A stretch of 32,000 bases of DNA from Cyanobacteria bacterium P01_D01_bin.105 (GCA_039025345.1 JBCCOO010000022.1:15790-47789); one strand, 5' to 3'; counted from the first letter of the stretch, positions 7,795 to 20,194 are shown. The notes: a model not told the origin generated them from the letters alone. Numbers and translations are program-made.

Positions 7795-8739
7795 CTATGA
7801 AATTCGAGCCCGCAGGAGCGCTTGAGGAAGACATGCGAATTTGCGCACTTTGGGTACGAAGGCACGTCTATTAAAGACGTCGTAATCGTTTTCCTCTATG
7901 ACAGTCAGGATCTTGCGGTAAAGCATGAGGGCCGTCCAAACAGGCCAGCGAGCGTCAGGATGCAAGCGACTAATGCCACTTTCGGCTTCTCGGTAATACT
8001 TCAAAGCTCTTTGAATTTGAAACCGCATGAGGGCCCGCCAGCGGTCATCAATAACGCTATTGAACAGGTCTTCAGGCGTATAGTCGAAGAGGGCTAAATC
8101 TTCTAACGGGAGATAAATGCGATCACGCCTTGCATCTTCACCGACATCCCTCAAAATATTGGTCAGCTGATTCGCGATGCCCAATGAAACGGCTTCAGGA
8201 ATCGGCGGTAAAGAAGGTTTTTGCTTTTTCCACGGCGCTGTGTTCACACCTCTATCCATACCCATCACAGTGGTAGACATCAGGCCCACGGTGCCAGCGA
8301 CACGATAGCAATAAAGCTTCAACTCTTCAAAAGAGTCATACCTAGAGCGATGCAAGTCCATCCTTTGCCCTGAAATCATGTCCCTAAAGGGCTGAATGTC
8401 GAGGTCATAGCGCTCAAGCGTATCGACCATCGCAACATCCAAATCATCTTTTGGGTGACCTGCAAATAGCTTTTCAAGCTGCCCTTCCCAATGGTTGAGG
8501 GTAGCTTCAGTGGTGAACTTTCCCTGGGGACCATCGACCAGCTCATCCGTACGGCGGCACCATACGTAAATGGCCCAAATGGCCCGACGCTTGGACTTAG
8601 GCATGAGTAACGTTCCCATATAGAACGTTTTAGAAAATTCTGCCGTAATCTGACGGCACTGCTCGTAGGATTCCTCAAGGGATGCAAACTTAGGAGCGGC
8701 GGTAGTAGTTGTAGAAGGGTGGGTCAGTTGCAGCATCAA
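7795..8739 (-). CDS. crtB: Phytoene synthase (15-cis-phytoene synthase)
   Basis: 314-aa ORF with squalene/phytoene synthase signatures YVWCRRTDELVD and GIANQLTNILRDVGEDARRDRIYLP. Confidence 0.9.
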   Translation of the reverse strand: MMLQLTHPSTTTTAAPKFASLEESYEQCRQITAEFSKTFYMGTLLMPKSKRRAIWAIYVWCRRTDELVDGPQGKFTTEATLNHWEGQLEKLFAGHPKDDLDVAMVDTLERYDLDIQPFRDMISGQRMDLHRSRYDSFEELKLYCYRVAGTVGLMSTTVMGMDRGVNTAPWKKQKPSLPPIPEAVSLGIANQLTNILRDVGEDARRDRIYLPLEDLALFDYTPEDLFNSVIDDRWRALMRFQIQRALKYYREAESGISRLHPDARWPVWTALMLYRKILTVIEENDYDVFNRRAFVPKVRKFACLPQALLRARIS

Positions 8740-9226
8740 CGCCTCAAACTGGAAAATGAACAGTGCTGCCTAATGCAGGCTTGCCAGAGCTGCCATTAAA
8801 CAATGCTTAATTCTCACTATTATATGTTTCAAAGCGTTACATTTTGGCACTAACCTTCGTTTCTTCACCTTAAGAGGCAACAACTGAAATAGCTACGGGC
8901 CACTTTGTCTATACGTTTGAGTTAATTTCAGTTTTTTAAGATTGGGTTTAGAAGATTGACTTTTAAGCCTGTTTTTTAAGCGCTACGCACTCAATATTTG
9001 TAACTTCGCACTGGTGTTGACCATTGGCTTATATGGCAGGCGGTATCCTATCCAACACATCCATCAAGTTACATTCTGTTCTTTCATATAATTTATCGTG
9101 ATTCGCCCGCCGAATGGCCGTTGTAGGGCGTTATCATGATGATTCTTCAAAAGGGAGCTTCAGTGACGCTAGCTCTCACCGACAATCGGCCTAATTGCAG
9201 GCTCTGTAACCAGAGGAACTGAGTGA

Positions 9227-10510
9227 ATGACAAAGACCAACACCGATTTTTTACAGCAGGGCGATCCAGAAATTTCAGCTATTTTGGGCCAAGAGCTCAA
9301 TCGCCAGCAGACTCACTTAGAACTGATCGCTAGCGAGAACTTCACATCCCCTGCTGTGATGGCGGCTCAAGGCTCCGTACTCACTAACAAATATGCAGAA
9401 GGGCTGCCTAACAAACGCTATTATGGCGGGTGCGAATTCGTTGATAAGGCGGAGGCACTTGCTATTGAGCGTGTTAAGCAGCTGTTTGGTGCCGCTTATG
9501 CAAATGTGCAGCCTCACTCTGGGGCCCAGGCAAATTTTGCGGTATTTCTTGCCTTGCTTAGCCCTGGAGACACCATCTTGGGAATGGATTTGTCTCACGG
9601 CGGCCATCTAACCCATGGTTCTCCAGTGAATTTTTCAGGGAAATGGTTCAATGTTGTGCAGTATGGCGTAAGCCAAGCAACAGAACAGCTGGATTTTGAT
9701 GAAATTCGCACGATTGCGCTAGAGCACAAGCCAAAGATGATTATCTGTGGCTACTCAGCCTATCCTCGTACTATTCATTTCGATAAGTTTCGAGCGATCG
9801 CAGACGAAGTCGGTGCATACCTGATGGCAGACATCGCGCACATTGCAGGTCTTGTCGCAACGGGCCATCATCCCAATCCAATGCCACACTGCCACGTTGT
9901 CACCACCACCACCCACAAAACCCTACGCGGACCTCGTGGGGGGCTGATTATGACCAATGACGCTGATCTAGCTAAGCAGTTCAATAAAGCCGTTTTCCCA
10001 GGTAGCCAGGGCGGCCCACTAGAGCATGTTGTTGCAGCAAAAGCAGTTGCCTTTGGCGAAGCCCTCAAACCAGAATTTTCTGAGTATTCTAGTCAGGTCA
10101 TTAAAAACGCGAAGGCGCTAGCCACTCAACTGCAGGCGCGGGGTATTAAGGTTGTTTCAGATGGCACTGACAATCATCTTGTACTGGTTGATTTGCGCTC
10201 TATTCATATGACAGGCAAAATTGCAGATGCCTTAGTGAGCGAAGTCAACATCACCGCAAATAAGAACACGGTGCCGTTCGACCCTGAGTCTCCGTTTGTG
10301 ACTAGCGGTTTGCGCTTAGGAACACCTGCGATGACTACACGGGGAACGGGTGAGCTGGAGTTCGTTGAGATTGCCAATATTATTGCGGATCGACTGCTCA
10401 GCCCAGAGGACAGCTCGGTAGAGCAAAACTGTAAGCAGCGAGTGCTTGCTTTGTGCGATCGCTTTCCTTTGTATCCTCACCTGCAGGCGACAGAACCTGC
10501 ACTGGTATAA
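9227..10510 (+). CDS. glyA: Serine hydroxymethyltransferase
   Basis: 427-aa ORF with [27 protein letters not shown] and the PLP-lysine region [23 protein letters not shown] Shine-Dalgarno sequence lies 8 nt upstream of the ATG. Confidence 0.95.
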
Positions 10511-10576
10511 CCATAGCGGGTTTTCGAGCAGAGTCTGCGCTATACAGGTTATCTGGCAAAATCGTCGCGAAATCGT

Positions 10577-10624
10577 TACCCCATGGGCTCAACTTCCTGT
10601 ACAGGAAGTTGAGCCCATGGGGTA
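10577..10624. repeat. Perfect 48-bp palindrome (24-bp arms, centre GTAC), 67 nt downstream of glyA
   Basis: Bases 10577-10600 (TACCCCATGGGCTCAACTTCCTGT) are the exact reverse complement of 10601-10624. The palindrome explains the mirrored peptide PHGLNFLYRKLSPWG seen in ORFs on both strands. Confidence 0.9.
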
Positions 10625-11004
10625 TTCGTATAAGTAAGAGATTGTTGATATTTTTCTCAAAACAGATAGATTGTAAAGAGGTATACTGTCGCGCAGTGGC
10701 CAAAAACGCCAGTACAGCTGAGCTAGCTGGCCATGCAGCTAACACCTTGCACTCATATCTACCGCTAACATCTTTCACAAAGCTACCGTTAACCCATCTT
10801 AATTCGTTCCATCACGCCTTCGAAGTACTCTCCTCGAACAATTTCCTCAATAACTGCTGTAAAACCGTAAAGCGCCGTATTCACTTTCTGAAGGCCATTC
10901 TCTGACATCTAAATGCTTGGATAATTCTGAATATTTGGATACGGCTTTGGCGCAAGGTGTGCTTTCGTTAAGAACCTGCTCACACTACTTAACCATCCGT
11001 TCTG

Positions 11005-12069
11005 ATGACGTTTCCGTCTTATCACCTCATTGCGTTTGTCATCTCAGCCACTGTCGTCCTTGTCTCGACACCTATCGTACGCAAGATAGGGCTAGCTAGT
11101 GGGAAAGTGGATTTACCGGGTGGGCGTAAAGTGCACAGTCAGCCAATGGTGAGACTTGGCGGCGTTGCGATTTTCTGCGGCGTACTCGTTTCGTTGATGG
11201 TGGTCTGGTTTGCAGGTGGTTTTTTAGGGTCAGATGGGCTACCGCTGGATCCGGTCACGGATAACTCCATTTGGGGGGTCACGTTAGGTGGCGTTGCTTT
11301 CTTTCTAATTGGTTTGGCAGATGACCTCATAGGGCTCTCGGCAATCAGTCGATTGATTATGCAGGTGATTGTGGCATCTCTTGCTTGGTATGTCGGCGTG
11401 GACATTGCCTTTTTGAGCTTGCCACTGGTAGAGACTGGCATTATTCAGTTGCCTAACTGGCTGAGTTTAATTGTGACAGTGTTTTGGCTCGTGGGTATGG
11501 CCAACGCAATTAACTGGATAGATGGACTAGATGGCTTAGCTGCAGGTGTTGCCGGTATCGCTGCGGTGGTCATGACAGTTGTAAGTTTGTATATGCAGCA
11601 ACCTGCAGCTGCGCTGATTGCCGCTGCACTTGCAGGTGGCTCCCTTAGCTTTTTGCGCTATAACTTTAATCCTGCGCAGATATTCATGGGAGATGGCGGC
11701 GCGTATTTTATCGGCTACACCTTAGCAGGGGTCGGCATTATCGGCTTGGTCAAGGGCGTTACGACCGTCGCAGTACTGTTACCTTCTCTAACCTTGGCTA
11801 TTCCAATTTTAGATATGTCGGCAGTTATTTTGCTTCGATTGCGTCAAGGGCTATCTCCATTCGTTGCCGATAAGCGTCACTTGCATCATCGACTACTTAA
11901 AGCTGGTTTTTCGCATCGGTTCACGGTGCTGTTTATCTATGTGCTGGCGCTTTGGGTTGGCAGCTTAGCGATGGCAGTTTCAGGCCTGCGTGTGGGTGTG
12001 CCGTTTATGTTTGCATCGACAGCGTTGCTAAGCTACACCGGATGGCGAGCGCTACGTCATGCGAGATAA
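11005..12069 (+). CDS. Glycosyltransferase family 4 polyprenyl-phosphate N-acetylhexosamine-1-phosphate transferase (MraY/WecA family)
   Basis: 354-aa polytopic ORF with ADDLIGL, NAINWIDGLDGLA and MGDGGAYFIGY motifs. Confidence 0.8.
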   Translation: MTFPSYHLIAFVISATVVLVSTPIVRKIGLASGKVDLPGGRKVHSQPMVRLGGVAIFCGVLVSLMVVWFAGGFLGSDGLPLDPVTDNSIWGVTLGGVAFFLIGLADDLIGLSAISRLIMQVIVASLAWYVGVDIAFLSLPLVETGIIQLPNWLSLIVTVFWLVGMANAINWIDGLDGLAAGVAGIAAVVMTVVSLYMQQPAAALIAAALAGGSLSFLRYNFNPAQIFMGDGGAYFIGYTLAGVGIIGLVKGVTTVAVLLPSLTLAIPILDMSAVILLRLRQGLSPFVADKRHLHHRLLKAGFSHRFTVLFIYVLALWVGSLAMAVSGLRVGVPFMFASTALLSYTGWRALRHAR

Positions 12070-13912: not shown

Positions 13913-14042
13913 CTGAGCAATATAGGAATAGATTGAGCTGGCAGGTAGGGTAGAGTTCTTTTGACTCACGCTTACCGAGCGGTTAGATGGCCAATAGTTG
14001 CATAGTAAGCTAGGTGGACAGGCAAGTAGCTGCTTCAAACTT

Positions 14043-14495
14043 ATGCTTAAAGTACTGGTTATCAATGGACCTAACCTGAATATGCTAGGCAAGCGAGAGC
14101 CTGAGGTATATGGCTCGCAGACACTGGAAGACATAAACCAATCGCTTGCATCCATTGCGCAAAAGCTAGATGCTTCTCTAACTTTCTTTCAATCAAATCA
14201 TGAAGGTACCCTGGTGGACAAGATTCAAGATGCCTTGAGTCTCTACCAGGGTATTTTGATCAACCCTGGAGCATATACGCATACCAGCGTAGCCATTCGA
14301 GATGCCATAGCAGCTGTAGCGATTCCGACCGTAGAGGTGCACCTCAGCAACATTCATAAGCGAGAAGCGTTTCGTCACCACTCGTACATCGCGCCTGTAG
14401 CCGTGGGTCAAATTAGCGGCTTTGGCGCGGATAGCTATCGAATCGGGCTAGAGGGCTTGGTAAGCTATATTCGAAAACGTTCACCCAATGACTGA
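14043..14495 (+). CDS. aroQ: Type II 3-dehydroquinate dehydratase
   Basis: Starting at internal Met16 (ATG 14043) gives [24 protein letters not shown], the canonical N-terminus, and about 150 aa. The motifs [16 protein letters not shown] and [17 protein letters not shown] are present. The ORF-track start at 13998 is probably too far upstream. Confidence 0.9.
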
Positions 14496-14598: not shown

Positions 14599-15219
14599 AT
14601 GGTCTCTTCCGTTGCAGATCGATCGACTACGGCTCGATCCACTATCAAGTTCCTAAAAACGCCAACTTCTGAGGCTTGGGTAGAACAAGCATTGGCGGAT
14701 ATGGATACGATTTTGCTCGATCATGCGCAGTGTGAGCGCAAAGCAGCGGGCACGGCAATCCAAATGATGTCGCGCTACCCATCAAGCGACCGTTTGGTAA
14801 GAGAACTGACTGCGATTGCCCAAGAAGAACTCAGTCACTACGAACAGGTCAACCAGTGGCTCGATAAACGCGGGATACCGCTGCAACCTGTGACGCCACC
14901 GCCTTACGGTGCGAGCCTAAAAAAATTAGTCCGTAGGCAAGAGCCTGAGCGAATGCTGGATTTACTGCTGGTTTCTGCGCTGATAGAAGCGAGAAGTCAT
15001 GAACGCTTAGGCCTCTTAGCACAGCATTGTTCTGATGCTCCGCTCGCTAAGTTTTATCGATCTTTAATGGCCTCAGAAGCACGACACTATGGCAGCTATT
15101 GGCTGCTAGCGACTGAGTATTTTGATGCAGATCTGGTGAAGGAACGACTGGCTGAGTTGGCTGAGCAAGAAAGTGGAATTTTGAGCGTGCTACATCCTGA
15201 ACCTAGGGTTCACAGCTAA
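14599..15219 (+). CDS. miaE: tRNA-(ms2io6A37) hydroxylase MiaE family (ferritin-like di-iron protein)
   Basis: 206-aa ORF with LLDHAQCERKAAGTA, ELSHYEQV, LIEARSHERL and SEARHY. These are paired E..H di-iron ligand motifs in MiaE-like spacing. Confidence 0.7.
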   Translation: MVSSVADRSTTARSTIKFLKTPTSEAWVEQALADMDTILLDHAQCERKAAGTAIQMMSRYPSSDRLVRELTAIAQEELSHYEQVNQWLDKRGIPLQPVTPPPYGASLKKLVRRQEPERMLDLLLVSALIEARSHERLGLLAQHCSDAPLAKFYRSLMASEARHYGSYWLLATEYFDADLVKERLAELAEQESGILSVLHPEPRVHS

Positions 15220-15274: not shown

Positions 15275-15796
15275 ATGCAGCATACTTTCAAAGATTTTTT
15301 AATTCGAGATTGGTCAGAGAGTGATCGCACGGCTGCGGCCAATGTAATTAAGACTGTTTTAGAAGAGTACGGCTTAGGCTGGGAAGCAGGCGCTAGCTGC
15401 TGTGGTGGCGCAGACCAAGATGCGGTTGAAATCGAAAAATATTACCTAGAAACAGGTGGCGAGTTTTGGGTAGTGGAATGCGATGGTCAAATTGTCGGGA
15501 CAGGTGGCTATCATCCAATTGAACGGGGACAGCAGGCTGTAGAGATTCGAAAAATGTATTTGCTGCCGGTAGCGCGTGGATACGGTCTGGGGCGTTATCT
15601 CCTTGCTCAGTTAGAACAGGCGGCGGCTAGTAGCGGATTTTTTCAGGTTTGGGTAGAGACTGCCACTGTCCTGAAAGAAGCGGTGAAGCTATACGAACGC
15701 AACGGGTATAAACCGATGAGTGGTGTTGAGACTGATCGCTGCGATAAGGTCTATTGCAAAACCATCGGTAGGGCGGATGCGCCAATGCATGAGTAG
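15275..15796 (+). CDS. GNAT family N-acetyltransferase
   Basis: 173-aa ORF with acetyl-CoA motif A, VEIRKMYLLPVARGYGLGRYLL, and a C-terminal YERNGY. Confidence 0.8.
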   Translation: MQHTFKDFLIRDWSESDRTAAANVIKTVLEEYGLGWEAGASCCGGADQDAVEIEKYYLETGGEFWVVECDGQIVGTGGYHPIERGQQAVEIRKMYLLPVARGYGLGRYLLAQLEQAAASSGFFQVWVETATVLKEAVKLYERNGYKPMSGVETDRCDKVYCKTIGRADAPMHE

Positions 15797-15822: not shown

Positions 15823-16416
15823 TTGAAGCCCATCAACGCAGCCCCTACAAAAAACTTTTTTGTCGATATGCTCACACGAGACATCGATCTCAAAGATGCC
15901 ATTCTCGACTTACTAGACAACTGTGTGGATGGCATTCAGCGAACGCTGCGAGATGAGGAAGACAATGAGGCAAACCCAGATCTTCCCTACGAAGGCTTTT
16001 GGGCCGATATTGAACTTTCAGAAACCTGCTTCCAAATATCGGATAACTGCGGAAGAATCCCGTTGGATGTGGCCCGGCGCTACGCTTTTCGTATGGGGAA
16101 ACCCAAAGGAATTAACGACGATGATGATATCGCGACTATCGGCACCTACGGCATTGGCATGAAGCGGGCCATTTTTAAGATGGGACAGTCAGCACAGGTG
16201 CGATCGCAAACCGCAAAAGATGCGTTTCAGGTATCGATTCAGCCAGGCTGGCTAGCGAGCGATCAGAGCTGGAATCTGCCGATAGAGATGACGGATGATT
16301 TTTTAGAGGCCCCAGGGACGATTGTAGAAGTGCAATCACTCAAATCAGAAATCGCAACGCAGCTCGGCTCAAAATCATTTCAAGCTGACCTATCTAGAGA
16401 AATTGAAGCGCTGTAA
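15823..16416 (+). CDS. N-terminal fragment: GHKL ATP-binding domain (HATPase_c_3-like)
   Basis: N-box ILDLLDNCVDG, a degenerate G1 box SDNCGRIP and G2 box GTYGIGMKRAIF. The fragment is 197 aa and ends at the TAA. Confidence 0.6.
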   Translation: MKPINAAPTKNFFVDMLTRDIDLKDAILDLLDNCVDGIQRTLRDEEDNEANPDLPYEGFWADIELSETCFQISDNCGRIPLDVARRYAFRMGKPKGINDDDDIATIGTYGIGMKRAIFKMGQSAQVRSQTAKDAFQVSIQPGWLASDQSWNLPIEMTDDFLEAPGTIVEVQSLKSEIATQLGSKSFQADLSREIEAL

Positions 16417-16425
16417 AGCTACATT

Positions 16426-17310
16426 ATGGCGAAAGGCTTAGAAATCACTGTGAATGGCAAGCCTGTCAGGGCTAAGCCAGTTGTGCTCCAGTGGGAAGGC
16501 GTGAAGAAATTAACCAAGCAAGATACTGAGGCGATCACCCCCTACCTCTATGAAGGCTATGAAGAAGACGTCGAAGTCACGATCGCAGTGGGTTTTCATC
16601 GCAGGCAGCCTTCTGCAAACGAAGTTGAGAATGCAGAAAGTCCTAAGCGTCGCACCCGAGACACGGCTGGGTGGACGATTGTTTGCAATGACCGAGTTGT
16701 GGTTGCAAACGACAAAACGATTTTGACGGGTTGGGGAGAATCAGGCATCCCCCGATATCATACCCAGTATATTGCTATCTCGGGCATCGTAAACTTTAGA
16801 AGCAATGATGCAAGAAGGCTGCCGCTGACAACGACAAAGCGCGGCATTGATGCTTCTTCAGAGCTGTATTTGCACGTGAAAGAGCGCATGCGAGAAGGGC
16901 TACGACTCTTTACGACCTATACCAACAAGTGGAAGCATATTCCCAAAGAGGAGCGCGCGCGGACACAACAGGCCAAAGCACAGTCACCCTCAATGATGTT
17001 TGAGCGAGTGAAGAAAGTTGACGATGGTCAGTTTTCGACGGCCAAAGGGAAAAAAATAGGCGGACAATCGAGCCAGTCGTCTGTGTGGACAGCTGTGAAA
17101 GACAAAAAGCTCACTGTCGAGCAGCGCTTCATTCCTAACTTGCCAACACCGCCTGCGATCGCTCAACGCAACCGCATTAGCTTCAATAAGCCAGTAGCAG
17201 AAGTGAGAACCATCGCAGAATACCTGTTTGGGGATCCAGAATGTCCGGCTACGACGGTGGGTGAAGCCTGCTTTGAAGAAGTTTTGAATCAAGCCCAAGA
17301 TGCCGAATGA
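16426..17310 (+). CDS. C-terminal fragment: second (S5-fold/transducer-like) domain plus a basic tail of the GHKL ATPase
   Basis: 294 aa. It continues the family pattern (KGLEITVNGKPV, GWTIVCNDRVV, LPLTTTKRGID with a candidate transducer lysine). I saw no nuclease motif. Confidence 0.55.
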   Translation: MAKGLEITVNGKPVRAKPVVLQWEGVKKLTKQDTEAITPYLYEGYEEDVEVTIAVGFHRRQPSANEVENAESPKRRTRDTAGWTIVCNDRVVVANDKTILTGWGESGIPRYHTQYIAISGIVNFRSNDARRLPLTTTKRGIDASSELYLHVKERMREGLRLFTTYTNKWKHIPKEERARTQQAKAQSPSMMFERVKKVDDGQFSTAKGKKIGGQSSQSSVWTAVKDKKLTVEQRFIPNLPTPPAIAQRNRISFNKPVAEVRTIAEYLFGDPECPATTVGEACFEEVLNQAQDAE

Positions 17311-18598
17311 ATGTCGGGCGCGGCCCATTGCAATTGATTTATTTGCTGGGGCAGGCGGCCTGAGCCTAGGGTTTGAGCAGGCTGGGTTTGACGTGGCTGC
17401 AGCCGTTGAAGTTGACCCAGTTCATGCATGCGTACACAGGTTTAACTTTCCAGGCTGTGCGATTGTTCCGCACTCGATTTCTGCTGTCAGCGGCACAGAG
17501 ATTCGAAGGGCGGCGGGCCTGTCGCCGTCAAGCGCGGTGGACGTGGTGATGGGCGGAGCGCCTTGTCAGGGCTTTTCGATTATGGGGCCAAGGGCATTTA
17601 ACGATCCTCGCAATGCGCTGGTTCGAGAGTTTATTCGGATTGTGCGTGAGCTTCAACCGTCTTATTTTTTATTTGAGAACGTGAAGGGGCTCACGATTGG
17701 CCGAAACTTTCAGTTCTTAGAGCAGATTATTCGAGAACTGAATGACGCGGGTTATCAGGTTAGACAGCCCTGGAAAATTCTGAATGCGAAGGACTATGGC
17801 GTGCCTCAGAGCCGAGAGCGTCTGTTTTTAATCGGTGCGAAAAAGGAAACAGCGCTGCCAGCATATCCTTGCGCTGTTGATATGCCTGTGACCTGTGCGG
17901 ATGCGCTACAAGATTTGCCTGATGCTGAGCAGTTTGAGCAATTGTTGCGCCGTGATGAAGTTCGAGCTGATTATTTGCGGCCACCGACAGGATATTCGGC
18001 AGCAATGCGCTGTAGCGATCGCACTCAATGGAAATATGGCCATCCGCGAAAATGGAGCCCGCGGGTTCTAACCAGCAGCCGCCGGACCAATCATTCAGCG
18101 GCTTCTCGGGCGCGCTTCAAACACACGCCTCAAGGCAAGCGGGAACCCATCTCTCATTTCTACAAACTTTCTCCCGATGGCGTTGCCACCACACTGCGAG
18201 CCGGTACGGATTCGGCTAGAGGCGCGTTCACTAGCCCAAGACCGATTCACTATCAATACGCTCGCTGCGTCACCGTTCGAGAAATGGCGCGGCTGCATGG
18301 CTTCCCAGATTGGTTTCGGTTTAATGAAACCAAGTGGCACGGGGGAAGGCAGATAGGGAACTCAGTGCCACCGCCTTTAGGGTTTGCGATCGCGCAAGAA
18401 ATTATGCGGGTTTTGCCCTATGAGCCGGTTCAACCTGAAACGAAAGTGGCACTGGGCGATCGTGCTCTTTTAAGCATGACGATGTCGTCAGCATCGAACT
18501 ATTGGGGCATTGATAGCCCGATTGGAGGACGAGATCGTAAAACCGGTTTGAGAAAGCGCAAGCAGGAAAAAGGCGAAATTTTGCTGCACGGTGCATAA
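17300..18598 (+). CDS. dcm: DNA (cytosine-5)-methyltransferase
   Basis: 432-aa ORF with motif I IDLFAGAGGLSLGF, IV GGAPCQGFS, VI FLFENVKGL, VIII QSRERLFLIG, IX-like TVREMARLHGFPDWF and X GNSVPPPLG. Its ATG overlaps the ATPase stop (ATGCCGAATGA). Confidence 0.9.
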   Translation: MPNECRARPIAIDLFAGAGGLSLGFEQAGFDVAAAVEVDPVHACVHRFNFPGCAIVPHSISAVSGTEIRRAAGLSPSSAVDVVMGGAPCQGFSIMGPRAFNDPRNALVREFIRIVRELQPSYFLFENVKGLTIGRNFQFLEQIIRELNDAGYQVRQPWKILNAKDYGVPQSRERLFLIGAKKETALPAYPCAVDMPVTCADALQDLPDAEQFEQLLRRDEVRADYLRPPTGYSAAMRCSDRTQWKYGHPRKWSPRVLTSSRRTNHSAASRARFKHTPQGKREPISHFYKLSPDGVATTLRAGTDSARGAFTSPRPIHYQYARCVTVREMARLHGFPDWFRFNETKWHGGRQIGNSVPPPLGFAIAQEIMRVLPYEPVQPETKVALGDRALLSMTMSSASNYWGIDSPIGGRDRKTGLRKRKQEKGEILLHGA

Positions 18599-18832: not shown

Positions 18833-20194
18833 TTAGCTGCGTTGATATTGCTTCCACTTTGCATACAAGAACAAGTGATTGCGCTGCTTGAGGAAAAAAT
18901 AGAGATAGACGCTGGCGATCACAACGACACAAAGCCCACCCAAACCGTTGTAAGTATTGATAATTTGCTGATCGCTCCACCCGTGCCCGACCAGCCGATT
19001 CATATCTCCGCCCATATCGCCTGACCCGCCAAGCAGCGTGCCCCATGGAATAGCCTGTAATCCGCTTTCAATTTTCTGCCATCGCCAAGCCGACCCCAGA
19101 AAAACGAACCCTGCGCCAAGCACCGCTGGATATCGATAAAAATCCCATCGCCACTGCGCTGGCAACGGAAAGTAAAAGCTCACGATGAGTAGGGTAGACA
19201 GATAAAACTCCCCGCCCACGCCACCAAAGGACAGTAGTAGATCATAGGTATTGTCTGAAATCACCCAAGTCCCTAGGAATTGTACTGCTGCTAATATTGC
19301 CGCCAACACCATCGGCCACTTTCTTTGTTCCTTCTGCCCCGTCCAAAACAAAAGTCCCAGCAGCGTCAGCACGCCACAATAAACAAAAAGAGATTTTTCA
19401 AGACTCGTATTCGTCCATCCAAACGGCAATGGAATCGCGCGATAGCCACAGAGCCATGCCACTGTTGCATGCCCAAATTCATGTATCCAAATGACAATGC
19501 CGAACAGCAGCAACCGAATTCCCTCAATGCTGTTCAGCAATGCGGCAAACAATAGCAGTCCTGGAAAGATAACAGCATTGCTAATTCTGTTATCAAAAGA
19601 AAAAAGGTCTGCATCGTCTGCTGTTGCCTGTACGTTCGGCATTGGAAAGGTCGTCTTCCATGCCGCCGTTTTTCCGTCAGATAATCCATAAACGCGAACA
19701 ATCTCTACCTCGCTTAATCCATATTCTGCAAGATTAGATTGACTCAATAGCGCATATATCTGCTGGGTAATTTGGTTTTTGATATCGTTTGATTGAACGA
19801 TAACGCCCAGGTGCAGTGTTTGCTGCCGAATGCTCAACTTCGTCGCTAGACCTATCTCTGTTAAGGCTGCAGTTAGTTTTTCTGCTGGCGACGTCTGGGA
19901 TGCCTGATAAGTTATGTGATGGGGTTTAAAAGATTGAGCAACGTCAGTATGGTCTTTTCGACTCTGTCGGGTCGGCTCATGGCCAGCAGCACTCACTGAA
20001 CGGTTAACGTCTGCTAGCAAGTGCTTTTTTATCTTGTGGTATGCCGACTTCAAGGGTTCTAGTGCTTGCCGTTGGCCCGCACAAATCATCTGTCCGCGGA
20101 GCTGAAAGTAGGCACTATCCAATGCCTCCAAATCAGCATCCGTCGATAGGTCTAATTGGCGGTAACAGGCGGCTAATTCTTCAGAGGATGTCAT
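18833..20194 (-). CDS. Membrane protein with an N-terminal J-like (HPD-less) helical domain and a C-terminal polytopic domain carrying an HEFGH zinc-metalloprotease motif (M50/site-2-protease-like)
   Basis: 453-aa ORF. The N-terminus, CYRQLDLSTDADLEALDSAYFQLRGQ...LKSAYHKIKKHL, resembles a J domain without HPD. The motif WIHEFGHATVAWLCGY sits in the first TM region. At least 5 hydrophobic helices are present. Confidence 0.55.
   Translation of the reverse strand: MTSSEELAACYRQLDLSTDADLEALDSAYFQLRGQMICAGQRQALEPLKSAYHKIKKHLLADVNRSVSAAGHEPTRQSRKDHTDVAQSFKPHHITYQASQTSPAEKLTAALTEIGLATKLSIRQQTLHLGVIVQSNDIKNQITQQIYALLSQSNLAEYGLSEVEIVRVYGLSDGKTAAWKTTFPMPNVQATADDADLFSFDNRISNAVIFPGLLLFAALLNSIEGIRLLLFGIVIWIHEFGHATVAWLCGYRAIPLPFGWTNTSLEKSLFVYCGVLTLLGLLFWTGQKEQRKWPMVLAAILAAVQFLGTWVISDNTYDLLLSFGGVGGEFYLSTLLIVSFYFPLPAQWRWDFYRYPAVLGAGFVFLGSAWRWQKIESGLQAIPWGTLLGGSGDMGGDMNRLVGHGWSDQQIINTYNGLGGLCVVVIASVYLYFFLKQRNHLFLYAKWKQYQRS

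Follow-up and report, generated by a model that had tools for sequence, protein, structure and literature searches.

The window analysed in this work is a stretch of 32,000 nucleotides from Cyanobacteria bacterium P01_D01_bin.105 (GCA_039025345.1 JBCCOO010000022.1:15790-47789), and all positions are counted from its first letter. Positions 15,823 to 18,598 hold two co-oriented genes, a frame encoding an ATPase of the GHKL superfamily followed by a C5-cytosine DNA methyltransferase of the Dcm type, which the original prediction had described as a minimal ATPase-methyltransferase pair without a nuclease. Comparison with homologous loci makes it likely that this pair derives, by reduction and recent inactivation, from a conserved three-gene module formed by the GHKL ATPase, a protein of the Pfam family PF20553 and Dcm. 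Two features had not been part of that prediction, a lesion in the G1 box of the ATPase (Gly78-to-Arg) and the absence of a third, tightly coupled partner gene.

The coordinates of the genes and lesions are collected in Table 1. The ATPase frame has a GAGGAA Shine-Dalgarno sequence upstream of its TTG start codon and contains, as had been described, the stretches LDLLDNCVDG, GTYGIGMKRA, GWTIVCNDRVV and LPLTTTKRGID; the short overlap between the two genes was also found as first stated. The methyltransferase proved to be complete, with motifs I (FxGxG), IV (PCQ), VI (ENV), VIII (QxRxR) and X (GNSV), and matches PF00145 (1.2e-68 over residues 12-369), TIGR00675 (3e-56) and the PADLOC model MTase_II (3e-161), the best solved structure being 3g7u (7.5e-63). 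No nuclease family among the Pfam, NCBIfam and PADLOC profiles matched either the ATPase or the methyltransferase, in agreement with the earlier description of the pair. The ratio of nonsynonymous to synonymous substitutions (dN/dS) between the Dcm of the window and its orthologues is about 0.08-0.17, and Dcm is most likely the only component still functional at this locus, where it would act as an orphan enzyme methylating its own target sites.

Table 1. Genes and lesions at the ATPase-Dcm locus and in its flanks.
Feature	Position	Strand	Remarks
GHKL ATPase frame	15823-17310	+	TTG start to TGA, 495 codons, frame 1
GHKL ATPase N-terminal fragment, putative pseudogene	15823-16416	+	197 aa/codons, Bergerat ATP-binding domain, ends at premature TAA
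G1-box lesion, Gly78-to-Arg	16054-16056	+	AGA codon, DNCGRIP vs family DNCGGIP
Premature in-frame TAA, Tyr198-to-stop	16414-16416	+	EAL*SYI vs family EALYSYI
ATPase C-terminal part, S5/transducer and helical extension	16417-17310	+	open reading frame (ORF) from ATG 16426-17310, 294 aa
ATPase/methyltransferase overlap, 11 nt	17300-17310	+	ATGCCGAATGA, ATPase stop codon and methyltransferase start codon
C5-cytosine DNA methyltransferase, Dcm type, intact	17300-18598	+	ATG to TAA, 432 aa
aroQ	13998-14495	+	ORF; orthologues of aroQ/miaE in locus L001 annotated PF01220 and PF06175
miaE	14599-15219	+	ORF; MiaE 75-88% identical across the window's clade
GNAT acetyltransferase	15275-15796	+	PF00583 at 7e-16; ends 26 nt before the ATPase
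Membrane protein, 453 aa, convergent	18833-20194	-	weak M50-like matches only; marks the downstream boundary

The ATPase family and the two lesions in the window

Against the Pfam profile HATPase_c_3 the N-terminal fragment of the window ATPase reaches 21.8 bits, which is under the 25-bit cutoff, the C-terminal part has no Pfam match, and the repaired protein has no sequence match in NCBIfam, PADLOC or the PDB. Profiles of the ATPase family and of the PF20553 family likewise gave no meaningful PDB sequence match. The GHKL assignment is secure because thousands of intact homologues are annotated with PF13589 and a confident AlphaFold model shows the GHKL and S5 domains. A homologue search in 5.8 billion proteins yielded more than 4,233 matches, the intact ones being 460-500 aa long and up to 84% identical to the window protein, while an exhaustive profile search gave 976 clusters at 50% identity (E<=1e-30). 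A pattern scan with one genome per species detected relatives in at least 517 genomes, spread in a patchy manner over many phyla.

The model was obtained for homologue P0002, which is 84% identical to the window protein (predicted local distance difference test score, pLDDT, 83.5; predicted template modelling score, pTM, 0.78). In it a Bergerat domain for ATP binding is followed by an S5/transducer domain and by a helical extension of some 150 aa at the C-terminus. A Foldseek comparison with the PDB placed Hsp90/TRAP1, SMCHD1 and MORC2 near-equal (E 2e-14 to 2e-12, template modelling scores 0.43-0.47, about 400 columns), and on the basis of this model the protein is predicted to be a clamp-type ATPase of the GHKL and S5 kind, forming a family within the superfamily of which the window copy is a defective member. 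In the N-box LDLLDNCVDG, which is present in the window, N33 and D36 are invariant in the family, as is K339 in the TTTKRG loop, the phosphate-sensing lysine of the S5 domain. Unlike MORC, SMCHD1 and Hsp90, which are its best structural matches, the family has no sequence similarity to solved structures even with a profile and carries aspartate as general base: at this position, four residues ahead of the N-box asparagine, Asp29 and not glutamate is found in 40 of 40 members (window codon 29, about 15907-15909), which may make ATP hydrolysis slow or regulated. The stretch nearest to the MORC motif GhXhhpXXRhl, G-I-V-x-F-R-S-x-D-A-R-K-L, is off in spacing when compared by eye without a reference alignment.

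The ATPase had originally been called MutL/MORC-like. The fold of GHKL and S5 domains stands, with MORC2, SMCHD1 and Hsp90 as nearly equal matches, and a likeness to MutL in particular finds no support. MutL was absent from the top 50 Foldseek fold matches and gave no Pfam, NCBIfam or PDB sequence match for the ATPase, and the DNA_mis_repair, MutL_C and DQHA(X)2E(X)4E features of MutL are missing. A nuclease hidden in the C-terminus was considered and ruled out, only Y, M, G, F, W, L and P being invariant in the C-terminal extension, with no conserved acidic residue or histidine or other polar catalytic residue, and the region being predicted as helical. The longest among the top 150 family representatives has 519 aa, so that no nuclease is expected to be fused in orthologues.

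An alignment of 40 family members (A1) contains 133 columns conserved at >=95%, and the window ATPase deviates at two of them only, the premature TAA and the exchange of Gly78. The position of the stop codon is occupied by tyrosine in 39 of the 40 members, and each of the 21 relatives from the window's own cyanobacterial clade has TAC or TAT there. Gly78, the last glycine of the G1 box, is invariant in all 40 members and encoded by GGY in 21/21 clade relatives. Both the G1 and the G2 box are invariant in the family; in the window the G2 box GTYGIGMKR is intact and the G1 box DNCGRIP has lost its last glycine. The family sequence DNCGGIP, aligned by eye, is what we take to be the counterpart of DNGRGIP in GyrB. 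The reading frame breaks within the helix that closes the ATP-binding domain (residues 184-202 in the model). An origin of the stop codon as an assembler artefact was ruled out, as the TAA lies in a stretch of 4,156 bp over which the window and an independent Logan assembly of run SRR22824307 are 100% identical. Because the in-frame TAA and the exchange of Gly78 hit conserved positions, the window ATPase is, as judged from its sequence, a recent pseudogene, truncated and with a second lesion in the ATP lid.

The same lesions have to be set against the possibility that ATPase and Dcm form a working two-gene unit at this locus, as they appear to do in sister genomes, with an epigenetic or DNA-handling role in the host that is independent of PF20553. 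The TAA would then be a minority allele, a consensus error or bypassed, for example by re-initiation at ATG 16426, which would yield a split ATPase. Agreement with the family at 131 of the 133 conserved columns and the in-frame ATG 9 nt after the stop would suit such a unit; the TAA in two independent assemblies, a break within the last helix of the ATP-binding domain, after which the split halves are unlikely to fold, and the loss of a family-invariant glycine speak against it, and the explanation is regarded as improbable.

Partner genes of the intact homologues

Eighty loci from 80 species were examined, plus loci reached from individual proteins, and the presence of partners was counted by tblastn in three groups, namely non-cyanobacterial loci (n=46), loci from other cyanobacteria (n=14) and loci from the clade of the window (n=23), the identities of Dcm, Vsr and HhH-GPD being confirmed by Pfam. 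In 51 of 51 loci tested the gene directly downstream of the ATPase encodes a PF20553 protein with a length near 325 aa, and in most cases the two genes overlap by 4 nt. Both PF20553 and Dcm were found in 45 of the non-cyanobacterial loci, together with Vsr in 22 and an HhH-GPD glycosylase in 9. Other cyanobacteria had PF20553 in 13 loci and Dcm in 1, and the clade of the window PF20553 in 1 and Dcm in 11; Vsr and HhH-GPD were found in none of the loci of these two groups. The single loci without PF20553 outside the window's clade are cut by contig ends, and so is the non-cyanobacterial exception for Dcm. Dcm stands upstream on the same strand or downstream in convergent orientation in the non-cyanobacterial loci, and Nostocales loci have the ATPase-PF20553 pair without Dcm nearby. 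When loci were sampled starting from PF20553, or from the remotest members of the family, the same arrangements of Dcm, GHKL ATPase and PF20553 came up.

The family PF20553 is listed in Pfam as Methyltransf_35, putative O-methyltransferase. Its model (pLDDT 91.7) has the class I Rossmann fold of methyltransferases dependent on S-adenosylmethionine (SAM), with the tRNA guanine-N2 methyltransferase Trm1 as best PDB match (E 2e-7), and the glycine-rich motif I, the glutamate of motif II and the aspartate of motif IV are invariant. The linkage of ATPase and methyltransferase gene thus recurs across genomes (45/46 non-cyanobacterial loci), and the native unit is a core of GHKL ATPase and PF20553, usually with Dcm, and not the ATPase-Dcm pair that had been put forward. 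A canonical nuclease is neither fused to the ATPase nor conserved as a third gene; the third partner is PF20553, and this gene is lost at the window locus. Clustering of the neighbours in 49 loci showed no helicase and no canonical restriction endonuclease conserved beside the module. Five of the 49 clustered loci contain an HNH_2 endonuclease, and a few loci (L038, L047, L053 and L085) have a second GHKL protein of larger size.

These counts bear on the idea of an ordinary degraded type II restriction-modification (R-M) system whose endonuclease gene was deleted and to which the ATPase is an incidental neighbour. An orphan Dcm beside a pseudogene with no other partners in the window is what such a system would leave behind. 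Unlike in type II R-M, however, no cognate endonuclease gene lies beside the methyltransferase in the window or across the 49 clustered loci. No canonical endonuclease is conserved in the 46 intact non-cyanobacterial loci from many phyla, where only Vsr and HNH_2 (5/49) recur. The linkage of ATPase and Dcm in 45 of 46 loci is too consistent for an incidental neighbour, and the orthologues (<=519 aa) contain no fused nuclease. This explanation is largely refuted and is considered very unlikely. Of the decay first proposed as one reading of the locus, the decay itself fits the window best, and what does not hold is the type of ancestor, a module of three genes in which no nuclease can be recognised and not a type II R-M system.

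A further finding was that Vsr or an HhH-GPD glycosylase is present in 31 of the 46 non-cyanobacterial loci, often directly beside the ATPase. The suggestion that the ATPase takes the place of a Vsr is contradicted by this co-occurrence. It would be compatible with a GHKL protein acting as a MutL-like matchmaker in the repair of T:G mismatches after deamination of 5-methylcytosine (m5C), by stimulating Vsr or the glycosylase. E. coli MutL stimulates Vsr. The analogy between MutL and Vsr partnerships has been discussed (PMC2292703). The invariant partner is PF20553 and not Vsr, though, and a matchmaker leaves this methyltransferase-fold protein unexplained. Moreover, 15 of the 46 loci and all 37 cyanobacterial loci are devoid of Vsr and glycosylase, the Nostocales pairs have no Dcm nearby, the pair is also found in a DISARM operon with an N6-adenine methyltransferase, and neither fold nor sequence is specifically similar to MutL. 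Such a role is therefore hardly probable.

Two Dcm subtypes are found with the module. The subtype nearest to the Dcm of the window (41-46% identity) is carried by the loci with HhH-GPD (L048, L050, L052, L058, L059, L073, L077 and L078), where the glycosylase is usually located just upstream of Dcm, and at the checked loci with the other subtype (such as L036, L041 and L045) Vsr is present.

Several of the intact modules lie in mobile or defence-related surroundings, defence islands among them. In PfAC20, a Pf filamentous prophage of Pseudomonas (PP058144; locus L092, 280-3711), ORF1 to ORF3 encode GHKL, PF20553 and Dcm in the accessory (moron) region; the PfAC20 paper, which used PADLOC, lists there only a "cytosine methyltransferase, incomplete system" (PMC11878078). 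On plasmid pR24_2 of Microvirga terrae (locus L091, NZ_CP102847.1 90375-103724) a DISARM operon encloses the GHKL-PF20553 pair in the order DrmD, MmeI-like N6-methylase, GHKL, PF20553, DrmA, DUF1998, with no Dcm annotated in the stretch shown. This plasmid is the only case of the pair inside DISARM, and none of the DISARM genes DrmA, DrmB and DrmC/D/E occurs in the window. At one further locus the module lies between two copies of an insertion sequence (IS), with type I R-M and TIR/caspase genes as neighbours, and at another about 4 kb from Gabija genes.

Neither the window ATPase, nor three of four intact homologues, nor four PF20553 proteins had a match in PADLOC-DB v2 at E<=0.1; the fourth intact homologue, P0096, gave a marginal match to AbiEii only (E 0.039). 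Dcm alone is matched, by generic methyltransferase models. In the literature no paper was found that describes the GHKL-PF20553-Dcm module or mentions PF20553, and the papers on YprA/ARMADA do not mention the module.

The module in the clade of the window

The clade of the window comprises Phormidesmidales/Leptolyngbya-like metagenome-assembled genomes and isolates. The order MiaE-GNAT-ATPase is kept in 22 of its 23 loci, where aroQ and miaE are housekeeping anchors of a conserved chromosomal site. In ten genomes besides the window an intact ATPase is directly followed by Dcm, in twelve of the 23 the ATPase is found without Dcm, and PF20553 occurs in L006 only. The ATPase evolves with a dN/dS of 0.05-0.13 at saturated dS, including copies without Dcm and PF20553, and the divergences of ATPase and Dcm from the window run parallel across the clade, which fits vertical co-inheritance followed by repeated loss.

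L006 (Cyanobacteria bacterium J06634_5) contains tandem GHKL paralogues (8001-9497 and 10229-11725) with 57% identity. The first, which stands solo, is orthologous to the window gene, and the second (P0034) heads a complete GHKL-PF20553-Dcm module whose Dcm is 64% identical to that of the window. The clade provides a natural reduction series leading from triad to pair, to solo ATPase and to pseudogene. In an ancestor the triad, perhaps with its ATPase duplicated, may have settled at the miaE-GNAT site; PF20553 would then have been lost and Dcm lost repeatedly, with the ATPase kept under strong purifying selection and, in the lineage of the window, inactivated only recently.

Parts of this history argue for a working ATPase-Dcm pair in the window, since an intact ATPase followed by Dcm persists in ten further genomes of the clade, both genes are under purifying selection, and their parallel divergences suggest long co-inheritance. 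The absence of Dcm beside the ATPase in 12 of the 23 tells against it, as the pair is not obligatory. The reading of the locus as a recently inactivated remnant of the triad remains the likely one.

One clade relative (P0029; L017 8001-9449) has an intact ATPase ORF with 12 substitutions at columns conserved at >=95%, such as MPTRD for MLTRD and STYGTGIK for GTYGIGMK. This suggests a second, independent case of decay or relaxed selection in the clade. In another cyanobacterial lineage a solo member (P0087; L089 10001-11503) was found amid housekeeping genes with no PF20553 or Dcm within 10 kb, so solo retention is not unique to the window's clade.

The flanks of the pair in the window were found as first described, with GNAT closely upstream and a convergent membrane protein downstream. 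The latter had no tblastn match in loci L001-L084, and its position is not conserved among relatives. The stated absence of island hallmarks was likewise borne out, the window containing no tRNA and no direct repeats flanking the module, only two short imperfect inverted pairs, and having flat GC. The HIP1 palindrome GCGATCGC occurs at 15 sites in the 32-kb window (292-27483), with 0.72 expected from shuffles. Four of the 15 sites (16200, 17155, 18015 and 18386) lie inside the module, which has the highest density, and this peak points to a module long resident in this genome. From flat GC and HIP1 sites the module is compositionally native. A mobile island in this genome was ruled out by the lack of tRNA, integrase and flanking direct repeat, together with the flat GC, the richness in HIP1 and the conserved site. 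Scans of the window for promoters and terminators gave counts not above those in shuffled sequence.

Proposed function and relation to known systems

For the intact module the following mechanism is proposed. The ATPase would dimerise on ATP binding like other GHKL and S5 proteins, and the resulting clamp would act on DNA together with the translationally coupled PF20553 protein. Because all its SAM-binding motifs are kept, PF20553 would methylate or read nucleic acid. Dcm would supply the self mark, and Vsr or the HhH-GPD glycosylase would repair the T:G mismatches arising from m5C deamination. The module may be a mobile, methylation-linked defence or addiction system with no dedicated nuclease of its own for unmarked DNA, which might be dealt with by clamping or silencing, by aberrant methylation or by recruited host or neighbouring nucleases such as HNH. 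Of the readings originally offered, a methylation-linked defence module suits the intact parent module best and does not suit the window copy.

Several points weigh against this interpretation. We infer the defence role and the interaction of ATPase and PF20553 from gene order and context only, neither the ATPase nor PF20553 is modelled in PADLOC, and no nuclease that could serve as effector is conserved across the loci. ATPase copies without PF20553 and Dcm have been under long purifying selection, and such partnerless copies show that the ATPase can act independently of both; the window pair may therefore have lost its function as a two-gene unit only very recently. The pseudogene call is built on two lesions, both from reads of one sample, in which an intact allele may exist as a minority, and the loss of PF20553 was judged at the window locus.

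A more far-reaching, and rather doubtful, proposal is that the GHKL-PF20553 pair, usually with Dcm, is an unrecognised widespread system against mobile elements which recognises self by cytosine methylation and, having no nuclease of its own, neutralises unmarked DNA by other means, and of which the ATPase has been domesticated solo in Phormidesmidales-type cyanobacteria as a chromosomal gene retained over a very long period, to judge from the saturated dS. Neutralisation could proceed through an ATP-driven clamp of the MORC kind, loaded by a reader with a methyltransferase fold that depends on SAM, or through toxic or aberrant methylation by PF20553. In eukaryotes, MORC and SMCHD1 need no nuclease for their action on chromatin that is methylated or silenced. 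If the proposal is true, the solo clamp ATPase of the Phormidesmidales-type clade would be a bacterial parallel to the recruitment of MORC in eukaryotes. The window locus on its own, a pseudogene and an orphan methylase, is of little importance. If the module defends, bacterial immunity would gain a MORC-like mechanism that does not depend on a nuclease, and a tractable bacterial model would become available for GHKL clamps reading DNA methylation, and the reduction series of the clade could show which parts are able to work alone.

Pairs of Dcm with Vsr, and of M.MthTI with Mig, resemble the parent module in that Dcm is accompanied by Vsr (22/46) or HhH-GPD (9/46); the window has neither repair gene, and the module adds two further conserved genes. 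Ambrosia, an experimentally validated system, consists of a methyltransferase, an Hsp90/HK-like HATPase, a REC protein and a type IV HNH nuclease (bioRxiv 10.1101/2025.09.30.679545; HEF_HK/Response_reg_2 modules, PMC8011034). It shares with the present module an R-M-like gene set with a GHKL-type ATPase and an adjacent methyltransferase, HNH being confined to a minority of loci here, and differs by its REC or XRE regulator, by the absence of PF20553 and by an N6-adenine instead of a C5-cytosine methyltransferase. Membership in the HEF_HK/Response_reg_2 (Ambrosia-type) group was ruled out, the window ATPase having no Pfam match to HEF_HK or Response_reg_2; the conserved partners match PF20553.

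GHKL ATPases in R-M-like operons were predicted computationally by Iyer et al. in 2008 (PMC2292703), and the GHKL-PF20553-Dcm module is a variant of this paraMORC/R-M theme for which PADLOC has no model. Like the paraMORC ATPases, the family combines GHKL and S5 domains, has intact ATP-binding motifs and a patchy phyletic spread, and is found in neighbourhoods with cytosine methylases, Vsr, sometimes HNH and sometimes a second, larger GHKL protein. The nearest family, compared by description only, is paraMORC1 (Iyer 2008, PMC2292703), the features of which observed here are a C-terminal extension some 150 aa long, Dcm in 45 of 46 loci, the second GHKL protein at the four loci named above and HNH_2 in five loci, with no helicase. 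Unlike paraMORC as described there, the module has PF20553 as an invariant methyltransferase-fold partner, and helicases, reported for about 70% of MORC operons (PMC2292703), are not associated with it. Members of the present family differ from paraMORC2 in that the sole conserved Glu/His pair of the S5 domain, E306...H313, is spaced E-x6-H and in that they spread beyond cyanobacteria and Firmicutes, and from paraMORC3/4/5 in having no RE-fold nuclease, TIR or HxH domain by Pfam, at lengths of <=519 aa. The validated antiphage protein VcSduA, a GHKL-Shedu protein, represents paraMORC3 (PMC12137116). It likewise places a GHKL ATPase module in the context of defence and has a predicted dimeric clamp, but is a single protein with a C-terminal PD-(D/E)xK (DUF4263) nuclease, whereas the family described here is without a nuclease and has methyltransferase-type partners.

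At L085 (6518-9435), one of the loci with a second GHKL protein, an unannotated protein of 341 aa and this second GHKL (574 aa, about 29% identical to the family) precede Vsr, GHKL and PF20553. This arrangement is a five- to six-gene variant found in some loci, and at L085 it adjoins an IS1595 element.

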